This document shows, piece after piece, positions 1,396 to 42,243 of a DNA stretch of 64,000 bases. The DNA comes from Candidatus Parcubacteria bacterium (GTDB taxonomy: Bacteria; Patescibacteriota; Minisyncoccia; Phycocordibacterales; UBA5272). The notes under the pieces are model-generated. The model was not told the DNA's origin. It was given only the letters and a program-made list of their open reading frames with translations, and did no database searches. Every line of letters starts with the position of its first letter. Position 1 is the stretch's first letter. The translations under genes and the position numbers were made by a program. Where the stretch lies: positions 88,399 through 152,398 of the forward strand of contig JBDKJD010000001.1 in assembly GCA_039796775.1 (NCBI GenBank), read 5' to 3'.

Positions 1396-4300
1396 CTATA
1401 TTCTCCCCTTAATTAAATCATCTTCAAATTGCTTAATTCCCTCAATGCTCTTTTCATACTTAGTTACATCAGGAAAGTCGAGTGTAATTATTTTGTGATA
1501 GACAATAGACGTGAGCTTTCTCAAATTTTCTTCTTCTTTTGTTGTTGTATCAAAAGAAAGAGTGAGTGTTTGTATTTTTCCTTCTTCCTCCTCTTCTACG
1601 AACTCAAGTGCGCCACTCTCTACGGTATACCCTTCGTATGTTCTTGAATGCTCTATGAGTACCTTATAAAAAAGTAGCTGATGTTTATAATGGTGAAGTT
1701 TAATCTCATCATAATCTGTGAGTTTAGGTTCTTCAAAAGAAGAGAATCCTTTACCTGTTTTTAGATCAATCACAGAAAGTACTTTATCTTCTCTTTCAAT
1801 CATCTTGTCTATCTTCCCTGTCAGATGTGCACCGTCAATCACTACACCATCGTTAGCGAAGTTAGCTTCTACTATTGCTTTACCATCAAACGTAGAGCCT
1901 GAAAGTTCGTAATACCTCGCAAGCACCTTCTCACCTCTATCTTGTAACTTTTCTTCTTCATATGATAGCAGTCTCCCGTACGAAAGCTCTCTTCTAAACG
2001 CATCGAGTAAAAGTGAAAGCGGTGGTAGCTTCCGTGTCTTTGTAACACAGACCTGTGCTTCTTCAAGCGCTTTATGTATCGCCGAACCGTATACTCCGCT
2101 TGGTGTTTTAGATTGAGGGAACCTCAGTATATTCTGCTCTAAGAATGTGATTGGACCACCTTTAGTCACATCGAGAAAGTTATTAAGGTGCGTCGGTGAT
2201 AGCTTATACCCTTCTATTACTTTTTTGAGAAGCGCCTGCTCGTCTTGTGCAAAAGGCGGCGCATGATATGGAGAAAGACCAGCTGCGATATGAAGAGATG
2301 ACTCACTCACTTCTTGCATCTCACTCTTAGGAAGATTTTCATGCTGAAGATATCTAAGAAGTGCTTCGTGATGAGTGAGATAGAGCGTGTGACGAGCGCG
2401 CGTCAGAGCTACATAGAGTAACCGAATGAAATCATCTTCATTATCCCCTGCGCTTGCCAGAGGCAAATTACTAGGAAAACTAATCTTACTCCCCTTTCTT
2501 CCACCTGCCCAAACTGCATCATTAAGAGAGATGATGAAAACATACGCGAACTCTAATCCCTTAGCACCATGAGAGGTGAGCAGTTCTACAGAGTTTTCAT
2601 TATGAGCAAAAGGTGTTGTGTTGGTAAGCGGAATGTTATACGCAATATGCATATCGACAAAATCTCCAACGTCCTTAACCTGTATCATACTCCCATGACG
2701 CCACTCTCTTAACCCGCGCATAAAGACTCGCAGAGAAGAAAGAAAGTGAATATACTTACTCGGCGAATGTTTCAAGATTTCTTCTCCGAAATAATACGTC
2801 TTATAGGGTGATGTATATGACGTACTAAGAGTGAGTGTGCTATACGACAAAAAGTCTTCCTCTTCATCTTCGCTAGTAAGAGGCATATCCTTGCTACCGA
2901 TGAGAGTATCTAGAATAATTTCTAGAGGTGTAGTGAGTGACAAAACACCAAGCTCTGTCAAAAATAATGCAATATCCCTAACCTTGTCTTCTTCGGACTG
3001 CTGCATGGCTTCTAGCCATGATATATGCTCTCGCTTAGCCTGCTCTGCTATCTTCCACACAGTAATACGATCGATCCCCCAGAAACTAAACGAAAGTATT
3101 TCTGGTAATAAATCATCTCTCATGGAGGTGACACTTCCAACGTTCGCGAGGAATCTACAGAGAGTAATGAGTTCTCTTACATGCTGCTCATCGAACACAT
3201 TTTCCTTTCGTGTGTATGTATAAGGAATATGTTGATTATCTAAATAAGGGAGGAGCGTCGTAAGCCCCTTATGTTCACGACTAATTACCGCAATCTCTTT
3301 TGCGTCTATTCCAGAATCTAAAAGTTTTTTAATTTCTTTAGCAACATATGCGTACTCTTCCTCCTCTGTTTTAAATGAATAACTAAAAATAGCACCTTTA
3401 GGAAGCGTTGTGTTCTTTGCAACTAATGTCTTAGTTATTTCTTTATAGTGATTCTCGAGGCGATTCACACCTTGAGTAACTATGATACGAGAGAAGTCGA
3501 GCACCTCTTGTGTTGAACGATAGTTCTCCGTGAGCACTATCACCTCAACATCTTTGTACAGCTCTTTGAATGAATGAATGTTCGAAATCTCTGCTCCTTG
3601 AAATTTATAAATAGCCTGATCGTCGTCCCCTACCACGCAAACATTGGCTCTGCCTTCATGCACTTCATTGCTCGACAATGCTTTCACGAGTGATAGCTGT
3701 GCATTATTGGTGTCCTGAAATTCATCTACCATGATGTAGTGATACTGCTCTTCGAGCTCAGCGCGTAACGTCTCACTTTTAGACAATGCTTCAACCACCT
3801 GAATAATCATGTCTTCGTAATCAAAAAGTCCTTCTTCATAGAGTGCTTTCTGATACTTCTCATACACATCTGTGAGAGCATAGAGCTTAGGAAGTGAGAG
3901 ATATTCTTTTAGCACACGAGTACCATCTTCATCTTTGCCGGTGTAAGAACTCTTCCATTCAGACAGTGGAGTATTCTTCTCCTTTGCTTCGGCTTCAGCT
4001 ATAGCGGACTCAATACTAGAAGCGAGCACTCGTGAAAGATTAGTATTCACCTTTAGAAAAGCATCCTTCATAGTTTCAAATGCGGAAAGTGAATCCTTAC
4101 CAATACGTTCAGGAAGATACTCATCTAAAATCTTATGCAGAGCATCATAACTCTTCGCATTCTCATCTAGTATCTCCTTGAACCTGAGCGGAGTAAGTCC
4201 TCCCTTTTTAATATCTTTTATTCTTACCTGACACTCCTTGAGATATGCATATCCGCGCTCAGGGTGATACGCACCTAGTATGTGTTTATGTGGTAGTCGT

Positions 4301-4764
4301 TTAAAAATATCTTCCAATATCTCACTTTGGGTGAGGTCACTCGCTGGCTTAAACGTAATGTGATCAAAAAAGTATTCCGGATATCTCCCAATGATATCAG
4401 TACAGAATGAGTGAAAGGTATAAATCGCGACACGGAATGCGTCTGGCCCGATAAGAGACTCGAGACGCTCTCTCATATTACGCGCAGCTGTCTCGGTGAA
4501 AGTGAGACAAAGAATATTAGACGCCTTGGCATTACCATTTCGCAATATATTACCAACACGAAGCGATAAGAGTTCTGTCTTTCCGCTTCCTGGGCCTGCT
4601 ATCACCATAACTGGTCCATCTGTTGTGTCCACCGCTTTCTGTTGAGCTTTATTAAGAGCATTATAACGCTTCTTAAAATTCTCATTTAGGGGTAACACTT
4701 GATCTCTTAATTGTTTGTTCGAATTCATTATCTTACTAGTATACGACAAGTTGACATATGTCAT
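1396..4764 (-). CDS. UvrD/PcrA-type ATP-dependent helicase with C-terminal PD-(D/E)XK nuclease domain (AddA-like)
   Basis: Walker A AGPGSGKT; helicase motifs MVDEFQDTN, VGDDDQAIYKFQGA, TENYRS. C-terminal VIDLKTGK nuclease motif. 1122 aa. True start may be the internal Met (MNSNKQ, about 4728). Confidence 0.85.
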   Translation of the reverse strand: MTYVNLSYTSKIMNSNKQLRDQVLPLNENFKKRYNALNKAQQKAVDTTDGPVMVIAGPGSGKTELLSLRVGNILRNGNAKASNILCLTFTETAARNMRERLESLIGPDAFRVAIYTFHSFCTDIIGRYPEYFFDHITFKPASDLTQSEILEDIFKRLPHKHILGAYHPERGYAYLKECQVRIKDIKKGGLTPLRFKEILDENAKSYDALHKILDEYLPERIGKDSLSAFETMKDAFLKVNTNLSRVLASSIESAIAEAEAKEKNTPLSEWKSSYTGKDEDGTRVLKEYLSLPKLYALTDVYEKYQKALYEEGLFDYEDMIIQVVEALSKSETLRAELEEQYHYIMVDEFQDTNNAQLSLVKALSSNEVHEGRANVCVVGDDDQAIYKFQGAEISNIHSFKELYKDVEVIVLTENYRSTQEVLDFSRIIVTQGVNRLENHYKEITKTLVAKNTTLPKGAIFSYSFKTEEEEYAYVAKEIKKLLDSGIDAKEIAVISREHKGLTTLLPYLDNQHIPYTYTRKENVFDEQHVRELITLCRFLANVGSVTSMRDDLLPEILSFSFWGIDRITVWKIAEQAKREHISWLEAMQQSEEDKVRDIALFLTELGVLSLTTPLEIILDTLIGSKDMPLTSEDEEEDFLSYSTLTLSTSYTSPYKTYYFGEEILKHSPSKYIHFLSSLRVFMRGLREWRHGSMIQVKDVGDFVDMHIAYNIPLTNTTPFAHNENSVELLTSHGAKGLEFAYVFIISLNDAVWAGGRKGSKISFPSNLPLASAGDNEDDFIRLLYVALTRARHTLYLTHHEALLRYLQHENLPKSEMQEVSESSLHIAAGLSPYHAPPFAQDEQALLKKVIEGYKLSPTHLNNFLDVTKGGPITFLEQNILRFPQSKTPSGVYGSAIHKALEEAQVCVTKTRKLPPLSLLLDAFRRELSYGRLLSYEEEKLQDRGEKVLARYYELSGSTFDGKAIVEANFANDGVVIDGAHLTGKIDKMIEREDKVLSVIDLKTGKGFSSFEEPKLTDYDEIKLHHYKHQLLFYKVLIEHSRTYEGYTVESGALEFVEEEEEGKIQTLTLSFDTTTKEEENLRKLTSIVYHKIITLDFPDVTKYEKSIEGIKQFEDDLIKGRI

Positions 4765-4825
4765 ATGTTAATGTATAGTTTTGGCAGTTGAACATTCACA
4801 GAAACATTTATAGAAAGGAAACATC

Positions 4826-5272
4826 ATGTTTCAAAAACTAGATAACACATTGATCATGATAGCTCAATATGTCGTGAGACAACTCGAACTCTACACTGAA
4901 GTCAAGAGGGATAGACTGTTTACAAAACTCATCAAAGTGAGTAAATTTGCTGAGAGATTATCTATTTTCTTCTTTTTCGACAGCTTTATCACCAATGATA
5001 TTGAACTGATCCACACGGAGAAAAAAAATGACATAACGTTACCTAAAGAAATAATAACCAGAAGAAAGGAAAGAGGCGACAGACTAATTCAGTTCACGAT
5101 TTTTCTGCTGCTTTTCCTTGCAACAAGTTACGTCTGGATTCTAGGAACTCTCTGCTACGCGATATTGTTGATACTGGAATACCTCCTCTGTACAACATCG
5201 CTCCCACCAGGAGAGAAGGAGGCTAGGAAGAAAGCCAAGGAAACGAGGAGTCTCACTCCTCAAGTCACCTAA
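4826..5272 (+). CDS. hypothetical protein
   Basis: ORF only; hydrophobic C-terminal half; no recognisable motif. Confidence 0.3.
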   Translation: MFQKLDNTLIMIAQYVVRQLELYTEVKRDRLFTKLIKVSKFAERLSIFFFFDSFITNDIELIHTEKKNDITLPKEIITRRKERGDRLIQFTIFLLLFLATSYVWILGTLCYAILLILEYLLCTTSLPPGEKEARKKAKETRSLTPQVT

Positions 5273-5300
5273 ACGCGACGATCAACACTCCGACCACTAC

Positions 5301-5348
5301 AAGCGTTTGATTAAGTAACAATTACTTAATCAAACGCTTTTTCTTTTT
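5301..5348. terminator. bidirectional intrinsic terminator hairpin
   Basis: Perfect inverted repeat aagcgtttgattaagtaa/ttacttaatcaaacgctt followed by a T-tract. Sits between convergent genes. Confidence 0.6.
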
Positions 5349-5361
5349 ATATATACAATCT

Positions 5362-5964
5362 CTATCGTAATGCTTTGAGTCTTGTGATAGTCGATTCTAA
5401 ATGATCAACAAGTGCGGCATTGCTATTCTTCTCTTTGGCTATAGATACCACCTCTTCATGTAACCATATTCTATTATCAAGCGATGAATGAAATCGAGAG
5501 AGAAACATCTCCCCTTCTTTATGTATTCCTTCAATAAGACTTTCTGTATTATGAATCTTATCTGCGAGAGCGATAAGTATCGCATCATCATGGCCACTTC
5601 GCAGTTGGCTCAAATAACGTTCCTTTCTCGTAAGCCATGGTAATTGATCGATGAATTCCTTGTTGGGGTCAAGAGGTTCGGTAACTGTAGATACAAGCAA
5701 TGCAGACCTTTCTCCTATATCATCAATTAATCTAGCCATGTTATATCCTGGTATATCTTCTAATGAATCGTGGAAAAGTGCAGCGATCAAAACATCTTCA
5801 TCATCTGTTATCTGAGACACGAGAATCATAACAGCAACTAGATGTGTAACATACGGTGTCTTCATAGCGTCATTGCGATAATGATGGGCGTGAAGTATCG
5901 CCACTTGTTCTATCGCTTTATTCAAACGAGGAGTAAATTTCATATCACAATAGTAACACATCAC
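5362..5964 (-). CDS. HD-domain phosphohydrolase
   Basis: H..HD..ED pattern: ILHAHHYRN ... LFHDSLEDIP. Confidence 0.7.
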   Translation of the reverse strand: MMCYYCDMKFTPRLNKAIEQVAILHAHHYRNDAMKTPYVTHLVAVMILVSQITDDEDVLIAALFHDSLEDIPGYNMARLIDDIGERSALLVSTVTEPLDPNKEFIDQLPWLTRKERYLSQLRSGHDDAILIALADKIHNTESLIEGIHKEGEMFLSRFHSSLDNRIWLHEEVVSIAKEKNSNAALVDHLESTITRLKALR

Positions 5965-6114
5965 TTACGCAATGGGGGTATCTATAATCCTTACCCTTAT
6001 GGTACTTTTTGTAGACATTGACATTAATATAAATATGTTATATAATAATATAGTGGAATTTTTGTCTTAGTTCTTTTTCATCTTTCATCAATCTAACCTA
6101 ACAGGAGATACATC

Positions 6115-6636
6115 ATGTATACTGTGCGACAACTCTTTCTCGTCTGGATGAGTTTCTTCCAGATGGGATTCGTTGGGAGTCAAAGCTATCCACCCTCTGA
6201 TCATCCAAACATGGACATGGAGCGCAACACTCTTCCCTTTGTCATCAAAGTGGCGATAGGATTGGTGTTACTCTTTGGAGTGCTGCCATCTATTTGGGCC
6301 GTCCTTTCTGGAGGTGACATCTTTCAAGATGTCATGGAGTGGTATCTCGGGGAGACATTTGACCCTAATTTACACAACGCTTATGACGTTGGCGTAGCGC
6401 TCTACCGAGCATCACTCGGTGCCGCCATTGTGATATTGATAGGAATGCTACAGAAAGGTAAGTGGTTGCTTGTGCTCAGCAAGCAATACCTTATCTTGGC
6501 TGTCTTATCATTCGGTTGGACAATGATCGGAGGGATGATGCTCATCCAACAAATAACTGGGAGAAATCTCGGTTGGTATGACTTGATGTTCATCCCTGTA
6601 GTTGCTGTCGGCTATCTATTCCTTCCACGTAAGTGA
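6115..6636 (+). CDS. hypothetical integral membrane protein
   Basis: Several hydrophobic segments; no motif. Confidence 0.45.
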   Translation: MYTVRQLFLVWMSFFQMGFVGSQSYPPSDHPNMDMERNTLPFVIKVAIGLVLLFGVLPSIWAVLSGGDIFQDVMEWYLGETFDPNLHNAYDVGVALYRASLGAAIVILIGMLQKGKWLLVLSKQYLILAVLSFGWTMIGGMMLIQQITGRNLGWYDLMFIPVVAVGYLFLPRK

Positions 6637-6656
6637 AGTAAGGACTCCCATAGAGC

Positions 6657-6690
6657 AATCCCCGAAAGCGCAAGCTTTCGGGGATTTTTG
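6657..6690 (+). terminator. intrinsic terminator
   Basis: aatccccgaaagc-gcaa-gctttcggggatt hairpin followed by ttttg. Confidence 0.65.
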
Positions 6691-6943
6691 TTAAAAAACA
6701 GTTAGTTAACTCTATGTGATCAACTGATTATCATTAACTATTTATACTAATTACTAATTGTTGTAATTATTTTGCGACTACCTTCTTTGGTTTCTTTGCT
6801 TCTTTTCTATGTGTTTTTGTTTCTTTTGCCATATGTAAAAAGTATATAGACAGACACATAAGTATTCTAGTGGATAACTAAGCGTCTCTTTTATCATCTG
6901 TTGAATATCTAGCTTTTTTTGTATTAACAACTTATAATAGTAT

Positions 6944-7077
6944 GAGTGTTTGAGGTTCAACTGATTGAATAGGTTTGCCCCCCCTGTGGTTCAATCTGCT
7001 CAAACACTCGCAAGAAAAGCGAGAGTCTTGTGTATCTGGTTGCGGTCTAGTCCACAAGACTTACCGCAACTTTTTTT
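6944..7077 (+). ncRNA. candidate small structured RNA ending in an intrinsic terminator
   Basis: TATAAT box at 6934-6939. An 11-bp perfect stem (gagtgtttgag 6944-6954 / ctcaaacactc 6999-7009) encloses sub-hairpins. Terminal hairpin gttgcggt...accgcaac (7039-7070) plus T7. No ORF with a plausible RBS. Confidence 0.3.
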
Positions 7078-7454
7078 ATTTGCATAATTTTGACAACCTT
7101 CTCCCTGATTGTATAGCCTCATTTTCATTAGAGAAATAAACTCTATTAGAAACTTTTGTACGTGAAGCACCTTGGCACCAAGTGTAGGTATAGGTCTCCC
7201 CTCCTTTGCTCCCAAAGATAAGAGAAGGTGAGCTCTGTGAACTTTTTATTTCTTCTTGTTTATAGAGAAAGGTTATTGGTTTGTTCTCTTTGTTATTTCT
7301 ATTCTTGACAACAATAAGAAAAACAAGCAATAAAAGAAACAGCAACAAAAGTGTGACTATATCAAATAAAATAATGCGCCTATTGATATTTCTGACAATA
7401 TCTTGTATACTGAAATCTCTAATAAATACCATATTAATTATTTAAGTATACGCT

Positions 7455-7727
7455 ATGGCAACCCGTAAAGCCGCCGGATCGGCAAAAAACCTAACTGACT
7501 CAAAGCCTAAGTACCTCGGTACTAAGCTCTATGCTGGAGAAACCGCTTCAGCTGGTGCTATTATTGTTCGCCAAAGAGGGAACAAAATCTTAGCTGGTCA
7601 AAACGTTGGAACAGGAAAAGATCACACACTCTACGCATTAAAAGAAGGAAGAGTCAGATTCTCAGAAAAAAGAATGAAACATCTCGATGGCTCCAACAAA
7701 AGAAAGAAAGTAGCTAACGTTGAATAA
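7455..7727 (+). CDS. rpmA: 50S ribosomal protein L27
   Basis: Length 90 aa. Sequence MATRKAAGS...KLYAGE...VRQRGNK matches bL27. Confidence 0.95.
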   Translation: MATRKAAGSAKNLTDSKPKYLGTKLYAGETASAGAIIVRQRGNKILAGQNVGTGKDHTLYALKEGRVRFSEKRMKHLDGSNKRKKVANVE

Positions 7728-7731
7728 TAAT

Positions 7732-7770
7732 AAAAGCGTCCCGCAGGGACGCTTTTATTATTATTCTTTT
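7732..7770 (+). terminator. intrinsic terminator after rpmA
   Basis: aaaagcgtccc-gcag-ggacgctttt hairpin plus T-rich tract. Confidence 0.7.
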
Positions 7771-7808
7771 GTTTCTGTAAATATGACGGGTTTTATTTTG
7801 TCGTCTAT

Positions 7809-8249
7809 CTACTTAATCTCAATTTTTAAACTTTTTGTATCTTTACCTTCTGAAAGATTATACGAATGAATACCCATACTCTTAATTGGGGTTGATATTG
7901 TTATCTGCTTTGGGTCTATAGAGAGCGCAATCGCTTCAAAAATAGCGTCTGCAATATCCCCCTCTCTAATCGCTGCAAACAACTGACCTTTATTGTCATG
8001 CTTCTTCCCAGAAATTATGAGATGTTCTTTTTGTAACATATCAACAGCTCTCGCGAAGAGACTAGTAGCGATAGCTTTTTTGTGCTCTTTAGCATTTTCT
8101 TTCATATTCCATTTAGCGAGCTCACCTGGAGTCGCTAAGAGCGCATCGCCTTTTTTGATAAGCACATTAATACCGTAAGCATCTGACACATCTTTGACAT
8201 CACCGCGCTTGCCTAATTTTGATATATCTTTGAGAAGTATTACTTTCAT
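7809..8249 (-). CDS. rplI: 50S ribosomal protein L9
   Basis: MKVILLKDISKLGKRGDVKDVSDAYGINVLI matches the bL9 N-domain. 146 aa. Confidence 0.9.
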   Translation of the reverse strand: MKVILLKDISKLGKRGDVKDVSDAYGINVLIKKGDALLATPGELAKWNMKENAKEHKKAIATSLFARAVDMLQKEHLIISGKKHDNKGQLFAAIREGDIADAIFEAIALSIDPKQITISTPIKSMGIHSYNLSEGKDTKSLKIEIK

Positions 8250-40115: not shown

Positions 40116-40315
40116 TAAGACTGGGTAGCGGTACGAATAAGCTTATTGCTTCCCATGCCAAAAATTGATATAATTGTTTCTATTGTTTTATAGAGACCAT
40201 TAGCTCATATAATACGAGGCGAAAGCTGAGATTAAATAATGCCGACGGTTTCAAAACCAGCGCGATCTAAGGGTCGATGCAAGGATATAAGGTTTATAGG
40301 TTAAAAATACAATAA

Positions 40316-40388
40316 GGGCCCTTAGCTCATATGGTAGAGCGCCGGTTTTGCACTCCGGAGGTGAGCGGTTCGATTCCGCTAGGGTCCA
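40316..40388 (+). tRNA. tRNA-Ala (anticodon UGC)
   Basis: Acceptor GGGCCCT/AGGGTCC with the G3:U70 Ala identity pair. Anticodon loop TTTGCAC. T-arm AGCGGTTCGATTCCGCT. Resembles E. coli tRNA-Ala. One 31:39 U-U mismatch. Confidence 0.88.
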
Positions 40389-40399
40389 CTCGGGTTAAC

Positions 40400-40430
40400 A
40401 AAAGCATAATACATATTGTATTATGCTTTT
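40400..40430 (+). terminator. intrinsic terminator after tRNA-Ala
   Basis: aaaagcataataca-tat-tgtattatgctttt hairpin. Confidence 0.6.
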
Positions 40431-40450
40431 GTGTTAAACAACCTGAAGAG

Positions 40451-40639
40451 ATGCAAATGGCCAGTGAAGGCAAAATTGAAGACACTCGTGGCGAGACTTA
40501 CACAGACAAGACACGTGAATTCGTGATCAAGGCCTTGCTTGAAAAAAGTGACACCCAGAGCCTCGCACTTTTTGTAGGTCTCACTGAAATCGCAGATGCC
40601 ATTAGTGAAGGACTCGACAATCTCGCAGAAAACATCTGA
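40451..40639 (+). CDS. hypothetical small acidic protein (62 aa)
   Basis: Internal Met of ORF 40331-40639 (the rest overlaps the tRNA). GC higher than the local background. Confidence 0.3.
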   Translation: MQMASEGKIEDTRGETYTDKTREFVIKALLEKSDTQSLALFVGLTEIADAISEGLDNLAENI

Positions 40640-40695
40640 AAAACAGGAACTCATCCCAACCCGCCATCGTAACCAAAGAAAATCTGTGGTTCGTT

Positions 40696-40802
40696 AGGCG
40701 GGTTTTCTTATTCTATTTTTTCATACTCTCCTTTCAATACCCAAGAAAGATACTTCAATTCTTTTACAATTTGGTTCAGAAAAATGATGTCGAAGTCCAC
40801 AG
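40696..40802 (+). repeat. 107-bp direct repeat, copy A
   Basis: aggcgggttttcttattctattttttcatactctcctttcaa...ggttcagaaaaatgatgtcgaagtccacag. Six mismatches in 107 bp against copy B. Confidence 0.9.
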
Positions 40803-40805
40803 CTA

Positions 40806-40834
40806 TTGACAAACATAGTATATATTGTTATACT
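40806..40834 (+). promoter_or_regulatory. near-consensus sigma70 promoter with extended -10
   Basis: TTGACA (40806-40811), 17-nt spacer, TGtTATACT (40826-40834). Confidence 0.6.
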
Positions 40835-40907
40835 GTATTTGACGTTGCTATATTCATTCACTTGACATGCAGGTTTGCAACGTCGCCTGCGGGCCCAAGG
40901 AGTTCTT

Positions 40908-41315
40908 GTGGAACACATTCAAATCGGTACGAAAGATGCAGGGGCTGGCACAGCAGCAACGATCACCAAGCCGCTGGACAGCGAGCCCCGTGCGAAAACC
41001 TTCCTGGCCGAGTACCTGCGTTCGCGAAGTATACCGGTGAATATCTACAGCATGACCTTCTCGACAGAAAAACGTGAGTTCAAGCTCAACACCACATCGA
41101 AAGATGTCTTTCTTCAGCTCGGTGCCATGGATGAAGAAGGCCAGCGTGCGTTTGGGCTCATGGTCTACCATCGTGCAACCATGGATGGGCGCGCGCTCGT
41201 GACATTCCCGCATACTGACGGATGTAAGGGATATTTATGCATCGTAACTCGGGGAATGGGTAACGACCACGAGGAGCGTATCCACATTGACATCTCCATC
41301 GCATCTGACAAATAG
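40908..41315 (+). CDS. hypothetical protein encoded in a GC-rich foreign-looking cassette
   Basis: Markedly GC-richer than flanking DNA. AAGGAG (40896-40901) 6 nt upstream of GTG 40908. ORF-track alternative start TTG 40875. No family recognised. Confidence 0.5.
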   Translation: MEHIQIGTKDAGAGTAATITKPLDSEPRAKTFLAEYLRSRSIPVNIYSMTFSTEKREFKLNTTSKDVFLQLGAMDEEGQRAFGLMVYHRATMDGRALVTFPHTDGCKGYLCIVTRGMGNDHEERIHIDISIASDK

Positions 41316-41353
41316 CCCCCGCTTCATGCGCAACGGAAAATCCATCTGCGTGC

Positions 41354-41460
41354 AGGCGGGTTTTCTTATTCTATTTTTTCATACTCTCCTTTCAAAATCC
41401 AAGAAAGATAGTTCAATTCTTTAGCAACTTGGTTCAGAAAAATGATGTCGAAGTCCACAG
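41354..41460 (+). repeat. 107-bp direct repeat, copy B
   Basis: About 94% identical to copy A. Its last 8 nt, gtccacag, form the outer end of the following palindrome. Confidence 0.9.
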
Positions 41461-41510
41461 AAAAAGTAAAAGCAGTATCAAAAGATACTGCTTTTACTTT
41501 TTCTGTGGAC
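41453..41510. terminator. 58-bp perfect palindrome (27-bp arms) / strong terminator
   Basis: gtccacagaaaaagtaaaagcagtatc-aaaa-gatactgcttttactttttctgtggac. Confidence 0.7.
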
Positions 41511-41671
41511 CCGAAGGCTCCCGGACTTTTTACATTGTACTCAATGTGTTAAAGTCCGCAACCCCTTTAGGGAGTTCACTTTCATAGTTAGAGCAAAATT
41601 TAGAGAGTTTGCATAAAGACAAATAAAACATGTAGAATAACTATAGTTGTTATATTTTTACAGAAGGAGAA

Positions 41672-42119
41672 TTGCTTATGTTTAAGGATATAGGGCAAGG
41701 TATTCAAGACTGGGTGCTCTTTGTGAAAGACGGAGAGCGGAGGGCTCACATTAGTCTCTCCGAAGACACAGAGAGCTACACTGTTTTTGCACTCATCAGA
41801 AATGCAAAAAAACGTTTCAATCTTACAGGATCCAGTTGCGTTGCTTTATTTAGAAAGCCTACAAAGAAATGGCGCTGCAAAAATAGAAGGGCTTTCAAAA
41901 ACTGCTGAAGTTTCTCTTCTTATTTCAGGACTTTTCCCTGAGATGACTAAGAGGGCTCGCGTGAGCGCAGATTACTATCTAGATATCTGCCGTACATCTT
42001 TCTTTGATCTTTCTTCGTATTGCGAATATTCTCGAAGGTATGTAGAAGCAAGACAGTATCACACTTTAGCTCTCGAAGCAGAAAGGATAACAAAAGTATT
42101 ACGGTGCGCAAGACCGTAA
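41672..42119 (+). pseudogene. hypothetical gene apparently split by a frameshift (41672-41908 and 41787-42119)
   Basis: Two same-strand ORFs overlap by about 120 nt in different frames. Together they would encode roughly 165 aa. Confidence 0.3.
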
Positions 42120-42131
42120 TCACCCACGCTT

Positions 42132-42163
42132 AAAAACTTCACACTCCTTAGTGTGAAGTTTTT
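42132..42163 (+). terminator. intrinsic terminator
   Basis: aaaaacttcacact-cctt-agtgtgaagttttt perfect hairpin. Confidence 0.7.
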
Positions 42164-42243
42164 GTTTACTTTTCCTGACTTAAGAAAAAACGCTACAATA
42201 AAAACACCTACACAAAAAATCTTTTTTTGATACTATAGAAACA

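Follow-up and report, generated by a model that had tools for sequence, protein, structure and literature searches.

The window analyzed here is a 64,000-nucleotide (nt) stretch of a Candidatus Parcubacteria bacterium contig (JBDKJD010000001.1, positions 88,399 to 152,398), in which a GC-rich unit with a single open reading frame (ORF) lies downstream of a tRNA-Ala gene. Positions 40393-41510, which begin 4 nt past the 3' end of the tRNA, form an array of two autonomous single-gene cassettes. The GC-rich unit is the second of the two and spans 658 nt (40804-41461), with a sigma-70 promoter that carries a palindrome, a leader of ~67 nt, a 135-amino-acid (aa) ORF, an intrinsic terminator, and a spacer of ~100 nt, in this order (Table 1). 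When these 658 nt are removed on paper, what is left is a one-cassette array consisting of a small ORF, a terminator, a spacer, and a terminal hairpin.

The unit differs from its surroundings in composition. In 200-nt windows, positions 40900-41299 have a GC content of 0.53, with flanks of ~0.36-0.40 on both sides, and among all 160 bins of 400 nt in the window, 40801-41200 ranks first (0.507), the runner-up being 0.477. The ORF at 40908-41315 has a GC content of 0.53 and a GC content at third codon positions (GC3) of 0.60, compared with a mean of 0.332 (sd 0.048, maximum 0.526) for the 46 other ORFs of at least 150 aa in the window. An earlier note on this DNA had described a GC-rich block at about 40860-41340 with GC-biased third codon positions in a setting of AT-biased host genes, and had named uniform GC and codon usage as an outcome that would speak against it; both profiles bear out the description, and the composition is not uniform. 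The broader claim made there, that of a foreign and transcriptionally self-contained unit at a tRNA-Ala integration site, is supported by the composition, by the expression signals, and by the differing cargo of relatives. Judged from its sequence, the GC-rich unit is a genuine, horizontally acquired, and self-contained expression cassette. The second-highest GC3 in the window (0.53) belongs to a 173-aa ORF at 6115-6636 without a Pfam match, which could be a further foreign gene or a spurious antisense ORF.

The promoter of cassette 2, previously noticed as near-consensus (TTGACA, a 17-nt spacer, and TGtTATACT), matches at 11 of 12 positions over 40806-40834. The Shine-Dalgarno (SD) motif AAGGAG and the GTG start at 40908 were also recognized correctly, with an actual spacing of 5 nt in place of the claimed 6 nt, and the start is supported because homologues of 131-135 aa align from residue 1. 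An imperfect 14+6+14 palindrome at 40809-40842 overlaps this promoter and is probably a repressor operator. A second palindrome, which had been taken as a hairpin after the tRNA (40398-40432, arms ACAAAAGCATAATACA/TGTATTATGCTTTTGT), is indeed palindromic and is now read as operator-like, overlapping the promoter-like TTAACA-18-TATTAT of cassette 1. We read it as a putative operator for the promoter of the small acidic ORF, and its arms resemble ACAAAAGCAGTATA-TATTGT-TATACTGCTTTTGT, which lies over cassette promoters in three other contigs (L007, L009, and L010). The small acidic ORF itself, seen before between the tRNA and the flagged unit, is confirmed as the ORF of cassette 1. Its sole match in a protein database search was itself, and it has no family match.

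Past the stop codon of each cassette lies a GC-rich stem followed by a U-tract (stem at 40658-40704 in cassette 1), predicted from the sequence to be an intrinsic terminator. The direct repeats that had been reported to flank the unit are present at the length and identity given in Table 1. The palindrome with perfect 27-nt arms is real as well, although it does not follow the second repeat but overlaps its last 8 nt. Its proposed role as the terminator of the cassette needs qualification, as the ORF also has a canonical terminator of its own (41318-41360, then UUUUCUU). The outer clamp of this hairpin is GTCCACAG/CTGTGGAC, and its interior has an 8-bp core between an A-tract and a U-tract, as in a bidirectional terminator. 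Three findings go beyond the earlier note: a 5' leader of conserved structure, operator-like palindromes at each of the two promoters, and the recognition of the 107-nt repeat as the standard inter-cassette spacer.

Table 1. Features of the cassette array in the window and of related loci on other contigs
Feature	Sequence	Positions	Strand	Remarks
tRNA-Ala (anticodon TGC)	window	40316..40389	+	ARAGORN; Rfam tRNA 61.5 bits
Cassette 1 promoter-like site TTAACA-18-TATTAT	window	40395..40432	+	within perfect 16+3+16 palindrome
Cassette 1 ORF, 62 aa, acidic	window	40451..40639	+	GC3 0.47
Cassette 1 intrinsic terminator	window	40658..40711	+	CCCGCC...GGCGGG stem, then UUUUCUU; -24.1 kcal/mol, z = -4.2
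Direct repeat copy 1	window	40696..40802	+	terminator 3' half, U-tract, inter-cassette spacer; ends in GTCCACAG
Cassette 2 promoter	window	40806..40842	+	-35 at 40806-40811; extended -10 TGtTATACT at 40826-40834
Structured 5' leader	window	40841..40907	+	conservation and covariation across 14 loci
Leader helix P1	window	40841-40848 with 40877-40884	+	arms GACGTTGC/GCAACGTC
Leader helix P2	window	40861-40873 with 40886-40899	+	CTTGGC-A-TGCAGG with CCTGCG-N-GC(C)CAAG
SD AAGGAG	window	40897-40902	+	5 nt before GTG 40908
GC-rich ORF, 135 aa, GTG start	window	40908..41315	+	orphan alpha/beta family, motif TTSKDVFLxLG
Cassette 2 intrinsic terminator	window	41318..41367	+	stem 41318-41360, then UUUUCUU; -20.8 kcal/mol, z = -3.0; terminator scan agrees
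Direct repeat copy 2	window	41354..41460	+	107 nt, 94% identical to copy 1
Array-terminal hairpin	window	41453..41510	unstranded	perfect 27-nt arms; -47.5 kcal/mol, z = -11
Large serine recombinase	L026	9938-11479	minus	ends at 3' side of identical tRNA-Ala
Large serine recombinase	L029	10070-11602	minus	ends at 3' side of identical tRNA-Ala
~100-nt element	L001	60-170, 1045-1150, 1160-1280, 1975-2080
~100-nt element	L015	545-690
~100-nt element	L009	2210-2330	minus
~100-nt element	L010	3640-3765

When the upstream regions of close homologues of the 135-aa protein were aligned, the promoters diverged completely, while the ~67 nt from the -10 element to the start codon were almost invariant. 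No stretch of the 24-sequence protein alignment is conserved enough for a pattern scan of contigs, and a DNA pattern derived from the leader was used instead. Among metagenome contigs, this pattern hit nine loci, with the full element in seven of them. The seven full leaders lie directly upstream of a family member wherever the contig reaches far enough, which is not the case in L019, and the identifiable proteins behind the leaders found by the scan are 21-23% identical to the window protein. The pattern matches in L018 and L020, which have neither P1 (the first leader helix) nor the family protein, were set aside as chance. Four more distant family members were retrieved through their protein sequence, and the leader is present at each of them. 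Altogether, it occurs at 14 of the 14 family loci with readable upstream DNA, at protein identities down to 21%. A covariance model finds exactly one leader copy per locus with scores of 44-90 bits, whereas the rest of the 168 kb scores at most 12.1 bits. Compared with the window, the leader is 57-94% identical, the coding sequence 51-70%, and the 60 nt upstream 51-73%.

The position of the leader in the transcript is equally constant. In all 13 loci with enough upstream sequence for a promoter to be read, a promoter of the type TTGAC[AT]-16/17/18-TAxxxT ends 6-7 nt before the first base of P1, and the mRNA is therefore predicted to begin with P1, with +1 at its first base. The leader thus has the properties of a 5' untranslated region element, in that it lies at the predicted +1, ends at the SD, and is tied to one gene class. 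No Rfam 15 family (4227 families) matched 40841-40907, at E<=1 over 4 kb or at E<=10 over 131 nt. We propose the leader, which occurs in strict linkage with an orphan protein family, as a candidate for a new cis-regulatory RNA.

The leader can form two mutually crossing helices, P1 (8 bp) and P2 (~12 bp). P1 is paired in 112 of 112 alignment cells and shows at least two pair types at seven of its eight positions, with arm variants such as AACGCCAC/GTGGCGTT, AACGTCGA/TCGACGTT, and ACCATCGA/TTGATGGT. P2 is nearly invariant in sequence, although four of its positions show compensatory changes, and it tolerates G·U pairs on the sense strand only. The secondary structure is conserved and backed by compensatory changes on the sense strand. 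These counts come from pairs tabulated from explicitly defined arms, as the covariance-model alignment had left P1 of L034 and L024 unregistered; in a first, smaller alignment, 99% of the cells were paired, which was not significant compared with shuffles. The final three bases of P2 also open the SD AAGGAG. Since the 3' arm of P1 fills the P2 loop, leaving linkers that measure only 0-3 and 0-1 nt, full P1 and P2 cannot coexist as a classical H-type pseudoknot. Among the 14 leaders, the predicted energies of the P1-forced and P2-forced folds differ by only -5.7 to +5.2 kcal/mol.

The protein behind the leader belongs to a family of its own. An exhaustive profile search of 1.84 billion cluster representatives gave 23 matches at E<=1e-3, ~20 of which are proteins of 111-139 aa. 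The family shares the motif T-[TG]-S-K-[DE]-[VI]-[FH]-L-x-[LF]-G, in which T62, K65, L69, and G72 are invariant. An AlphaFold2 model built with the family alignment is confident, with a predicted local distance difference test score (pLDDT) of 88.5 and a predicted template modeling score (pTM) of 0.65, and the predicted fold runs from a beta-hairpin through a helix, two strands, and two helices to a three-stranded sheet. There was no convincing fold match among structures in the PDB, and a Foldseek comparison with viral protein models stayed at template modeling (TM) scores below 0.4. That the protein could not be assigned to a family, as had been stated before, holds after sequence and profile searches of Pfam, NCBIfam, PADLOC, PHROG, and the PDB, all of which were negative. 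None of the PADLOC 2.0 defense hidden Markov models matched at E<=1, none of the 24 family members has a PADLOC, Pfam, or PHROG match, and the family has no matches in 2.9 million viral contigs. We therefore regard the family, which has no Pfam, PDB, or PHROG match, as an orphan.

Two aspects of its annotation need correction. Two members (P0001 and P0005) carry the JGI name SoxD, for the delta subunit of sarcosine oxidase. The scores are 12.3 bits with PF04267 (cut-off 27) and 13.7 bits with TIGR01374 (cut-off 116.5), and only 1 of the 24 members reaches E = 0.009; because these scores lie below the curated cut-offs, the name is a spurious transfer. Three other members in alignment A4 (P0012, P0018, and P0024) were given N-terminal extensions by gene callers, all of them MQIGDVVCEPKEF-like peptides. 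Since such peptides are translated leader RNA (ATGCAG...GAGCCCAAGGAG), the extensions are annotation artifacts.

Cassettes of this kind also occur on other contigs. A word-seeded search of 5.8 billion proteins returned six that resemble the ORF, and the contigs of these homologues (L001, L003, and L004) are arrays of small ORFs without Pfam domains. On L001, a contig from a Saccharibacteria metagenome-assembled genome (MAG), a homologous cassette is colinear with the window from the promoter to GTCCACAG. This contig has the 29-nt promoter motif of the window three times, CCCGCC...GGCGGG-UUUC terminators, and the spacer of the window, ending in ...ATGTCGAAGTCCACAG, at 73-92% identity; its hairpin has the same GTCCACAG ends and 27-nt arm length and a different interior. 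L015 shares gene, terminator, spacer, and hairpin in the order of the window, with a spacer 87% identical to the window repeat. Because the same spacer follows the homologues in L001 and L015, the 107-nt repeat of the window is the standard inter-cassette spacer. Among the explanations offered by the earlier note, a mobile mini-cassette fits best, given the colinear cassette in L001 and the parts shared with L015. In L003 and L004, the leader and gene lie within arrays of differing promoter and spacer.

The general plan recurs beyond the direct homologues. Arrays in Saccharibacteria MAGs repeatedly combine a TTGACA promoter overlain by an operator-like palindrome with a small ORF, a terminator of the GGCGGG-UUUUCUU type, a conserved spacer, and a hairpin at the end, and AAAAGTAAAAG-type terminal hairpins follow the spacers in L009, L010, and L015. 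L010 has 4-5 tandem units, each composed of a promoter, a small ORF, a terminator, and a spacer, whereas L007, which has the same right flank (70% aa identity) and shares one cassette with L010 (85% nt identity), has a single unit. The number of cassettes thus varies at a syntenic locus. The promoter/operator motif was found in only five contigs among 185,579 species representatives in GTDB, all of them labelled uncultured Candidatus Saccharibacteria, and in none of the 2.9 million viral contigs. A full-text literature search on Saccharibacteria and the candidate phyla radiation (CPR) yielded nothing on cassette arrays or new RNA motifs beyond natural competence. Within the 5-kb array of L001, a 251-nt segment comprising the terminal hairpin and downstream DNA is present twice (804-1054 and 1728-1978) at 100% identity, which suggests a very recent duplication or inter-cassette recombination in that contig.

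The tRNA-Ala gene is a hot spot in this lineage and is occupied differently in related genomes. Homologues of the SGNH hydrolase that flanks the array are ~70% identical and lie on contigs that share the upstream synteny of the window (SerRS, AOX, a 144-aa ORF, an FtsX permease, an ABC ATPase, and the SGNH hydrolase); the closest named homologue is labelled Candidatus Pacebacteria, which places the window in the Patescibacteria (CPR). In two of these relatives (L026 and L029), the tRNA-Ala is identical to that of the window at 74 of 74 nt and is followed by a different island, in which a simple terminator comes first and the gene for a large serine recombinase (Resolvase and Recombinase domains) second. 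Nothing akin to window positions 40390-42240 is present at the tRNA-Ala site of the syntenic relatives, and the recombinase, as far as the sequences tell, marks a different integrated element at the same tRNA. An empty tRNA-Ala site was not found, the closest relatives available (~70% identity) carrying the different island.

Taken together, these results lead us to an account that we hold with moderate confidence: a two-cassette array at tRNA-Ala, a foreign second unit, a leader that works as a bistable switch, and an origin by recombination between spacers. Because the spacer flanks the unit on both sides, the simplest history would be insertion or tandem accretion of the cassette by recombination between spacer copies. 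The incoming DNA could equally well have been taken up by natural transformation or mobilized in trans by an island recombinase. Natural competence has been shown for Saccharibacteria (PMC10187176 / PMC10633639). For the leader, we infer a bistable translational switch because P1 and P2 are mutually exclusive and their predicted energies are similar. Formation of P2 would partly mask the SD, whereas formation of P1 would leave the SD free and protect the mRNA at its 5' end. As effector we favor the protein that the cassette encodes, acting in autogenous control, an assignment that we make tentatively and at less than even chances; it is favored over others because leader and protein co-occur exclusively and because P2 is nearly invariant in sequence while P1 covaries freely. 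The palindromes over both promoters could in turn be operators of a common repressor.

Several observations weigh against this account. Much of the covariation in P2 comes from one sequence, L034, and in the same sequence the SD lies 6 nt outside P2, so masking of the SD is not universal. A partial pseudoknot composed of P1 and lower P2 may be an alternative shape of the leader. The family proteins have a near-neutral isoelectric point and no RNA-binding signature, and the family is small. As for the proposed entry of the cassette, no recombinase domain is present among the ORFs of window positions 33.5-50 kb, and the flanking 107-nt repeats are not derived from the tRNA.

The alternative that survives best concerns the effector. 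The leader could be a riboswitch for a small molecule or an ion, with the protein acting on, binding, or exporting the ligand and taking no regulatory part. The compactness and conservation of the fold and its pair of competing helices, of which one reaches into the SD, would suit such an element, as would the strictly conserved unpaired bases and the constant +1 position, both typical of translational riboswitches. However, known riboswitches covary in their helices and conserve their junctions, whereas here both strands of P2 are almost invariant. The motif is, moreover, tied to a single tiny protein family without enzyme or transporter features, it is absent from Rfam 15, and in L034 the SD is not part of P2. 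We consider a riboswitch unlikely.

The leader resembles ribosomal-protein leaders, the MS2 coat-protein operator, and the SAM-II and preQ1-II riboswitches, all of which sequester the SD, in its short covarying helices, its overlap with the SD, and its strict linkage to the downstream gene; unlike these, it matches 0 of the 4227 Rfam families. It also differs from H-type pseudoknot riboswitches in that its helices look mutually exclusive: with a loop 3 of 0-1 nt against an 8-bp stem, they do not make one classical H-type pseudoknot. The leader thus appears to fall in the general class of SD-occluding regulatory leaders and in no described family.

A leader without any dedicated effector, in which P1 is a 5' stabilizing stem-loop and P2 tunes translation or serves as an RNA thermometer, is a rather improbable alternative. 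P1 stands at the predicted +1 in 13 of 13 loci, as stabilizer stems do, and near-consensus promoters and SD motifs would fit a passive leader of this kind. Stabilizer stems, however, need neither a second, competing helix nor ~40 nearly invariant nt across proteins of 21-30% identity.

The cassette gene might also be a toxin, immunity, or anti-phage defense gene, in one version the partner of the upstream acidic ORF in a type II toxin-antitoxin pair, as had been among the possibilities raised earlier. In favor of this, it is small and accessory, belongs to a variable island, and has an acidic ORF before it in the window, and the homologue in L032 lies between an IS30-like transposase and, past a 159-aa ORF, a TraG/DUF87-like ATPase. 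We think this improbable. None of the 24 family members matches a defense, domain, or phage protein family in PADLOC, Pfam, or PHROG, the window protein has no PDB match, and no partner gene is conserved across the loci, where homologues have different neighbors. The acidic ORF, a singleton that recurs at none of the other loci, forms a separate transcription unit with its own terminator; the terminator and the promoter of cassette 2 separate the two ORFs, which are thus not the co-transcribed, jointly conserved pair that a type II system consists of. In L032, within 2897-7809, the transposase (HTH_38 and rve_3 domains) stands directly upstream of the distant family member with its leader, and the 159-aa ORF, on the minus strand, and the ATPase follow downstream, which points to a probable mobile-element or type IV secretion context for this member.

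The array invites comparison with integrons. It shares with integron arrays the tandem order of small, mostly orphan single-gene cassettes with conserved hairpin-prone sequences between them and, across related genomes, a varying number of cassettes at a syntenic locus. If it were such an array, the hairpins would be attC-like DNA recombination sites, folded in single-stranded DNA and acted on by an integrase, and the unit an integron-type cassette, for which the conserved spacers and hairpins and the varying cassette number would speak. We regard this as very improbable. Integron cassettes are promoterless, whereas each cassette in the window has its own sigma-70-like promoter and terminator. 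There is no attC-type imperfect palindrome per cassette, cassette 1 being followed only by a terminator and spacer; the large hairpin is perfect, without extrahelical bases, and there is a single one in each array. The leader precedes the gene, in the interval from +1 to the SD, and has G·U pairs that are workable on the sense strand only. Neither a tyrosine recombinase nor intI lies near the array (window 33.5-50 kb), and the array, unlike an integron, abuts a tRNA gene.

Two other known systems are comparable in part. The morons of lambdoid phages are self-contained modules of promoter, gene, and terminator that sit between other genes and deviate in GC content. The unit in the window resembles them as a single gene with its own strong promoter and terminator, of distinct base composition, placed between unrelated genes and with a homologous module in differing contexts in other genomes. 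It differs from them in that it is not in a prophage, has no matches in viral contigs or PHROGs, and belongs to tandem arrays with shared spacers, operator-like palindromes, and a structured leader. Islands linked to tRNA genes include tandem-accreting ones such as the tycheposons of Prochlorococcus. The position at the 3' side of a tRNA, the deviant composition (GC3 0.60 vs 0.33), and the unrelated DNA at the same site in relatives, with cargo that includes a large serine recombinase, are as in such islands; an integrase and attL/attR sites are not found near the array, the direct repeats are spacers unrelated to the tRNA and not 3' fragments of it, and the unit measures only 658 nt.

That the unit is an assembly chimera or a laboratory construct is scarcely credible, in spite of the abrupt GC change, the textbook signals, and 107-nt repeats able to mislead an assembler, as the cassette gene, the flanking hydrolase, and the small ORF lie together on one 163,022-nt JGI contig, the leader and family are present on at least 13 other metagenomic or MAG contigs (JGI, ENA, NCBI, and Logan) at 21-70% protein identity, and the protein matches no marker gene family.

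Seen more widely, the locus could belong to a previously undescribed kind of cassette platform in Patescibacteria (at least in Saccharibacteria and their relatives), a proposal that we offer as possible but doubtful. Single-gene cassettes, each with its promoter and bounded by terminators, would share a palindromic operator and form arrays that accrete at tRNA genes. They would be exchanged without a dedicated integrase via conserved spacers of ~100 nt and hairpins, with homologous recombination following natural transformation as one conceivable route, and one of these cassettes would carry a new riboregulator together with the orphan protein, which it would control autogenously. Both the RNA family and the protein family are new, and the same may hold for the cassette platform. 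Much of bacterial diversity belongs to the CPR/Patescibacteria, and little appears to have been described on their regulatory RNAs or gene exchange. The locus offers a candidate regulatory RNA of ~67 nt with clear covariation and a defined partner protein, an orphan family with a confident predicted fold, and evidence of small self-expressing cassettes circulating among ultra-small epibionts. If the array system is real, it would be a recombinase-independent analogue of integrons in otherwise extremely streamlined genomes, and it would naturally supply compact promoters, leaders, and terminators as parts for Saccharibacteria, which have lately become tractable.

A number of further observations concern the array and its surroundings. 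Both spacer copies in the window contain a minus-strand promoter-like sequence, TTGAAA-16-TAGAAT (10 of 12 positions; 40710-40737 and 41368-41395), which would aim back at the terminator of the preceding cassette, and a short antisense RNA is possible there. A minus-strand gene in the 107-nt repeat was considered on account of a 30-aa peptide with conservative differences between the copies; only a variable hairpin lies upstream of it, and with neither a start codon nor a conserved ORF it was ruled out. Upstream of the array, a 21-nt partial copy of the 5' end of tRNA-Ala (81% identical) lies at 40190-40210, ~120 nt before the true tRNA, and may be a scar of an earlier rearrangement at the hot spot. 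Downstream come genes for an EEP-family protein, for two unknown proteins, and for enzymes of glycogen metabolism. The idea that the order is inverted compared with the relatives, for which 45-48 kb had been taken to match their FecR and CHASE2 genes, was rejected, as Pfam shows the glycogen-metabolism genes there. At 41672-42119, two overlapping plus-strand ORFs (78 and 110 aa) without a Pfam match would be fused into a product of ~146 aa by a frameshift at an A7 run near 41813-41819; the pair could be a pseudogene, a sequencing error, or a case of programmed slippage.

Two observations relate to arrays elsewhere. In L022, from a GC-richer genome, paralogous ORFs of 94-100 aa (5016-5318 and 6259-6543) flank the family gene and its leader, between TrmD/PadR and rpoB, and each of them begins after or ends in the same CCTCCAAACCGGCCA motif, forming another repeat-flanked arrangement. 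The arrays of Saccharibacteria also contain a recurrent element of ~100 nt before cassette promoters, which is not present in the window and has no Rfam match. It starts with a 9-bp hairpin with a CTGY loop, after which come GGAGAATCGAATACGGGGTCGAGA, an internal stem with covariation from copy to copy, and CGTGACCGATTCTCCTAGGG, and its 3' end resembles the 3' end of tRNA-Ala (TCGATTCCGCTAGGGTCCA). It may represent an att-type scar or, alternatively, a structured RNA of a new kind.

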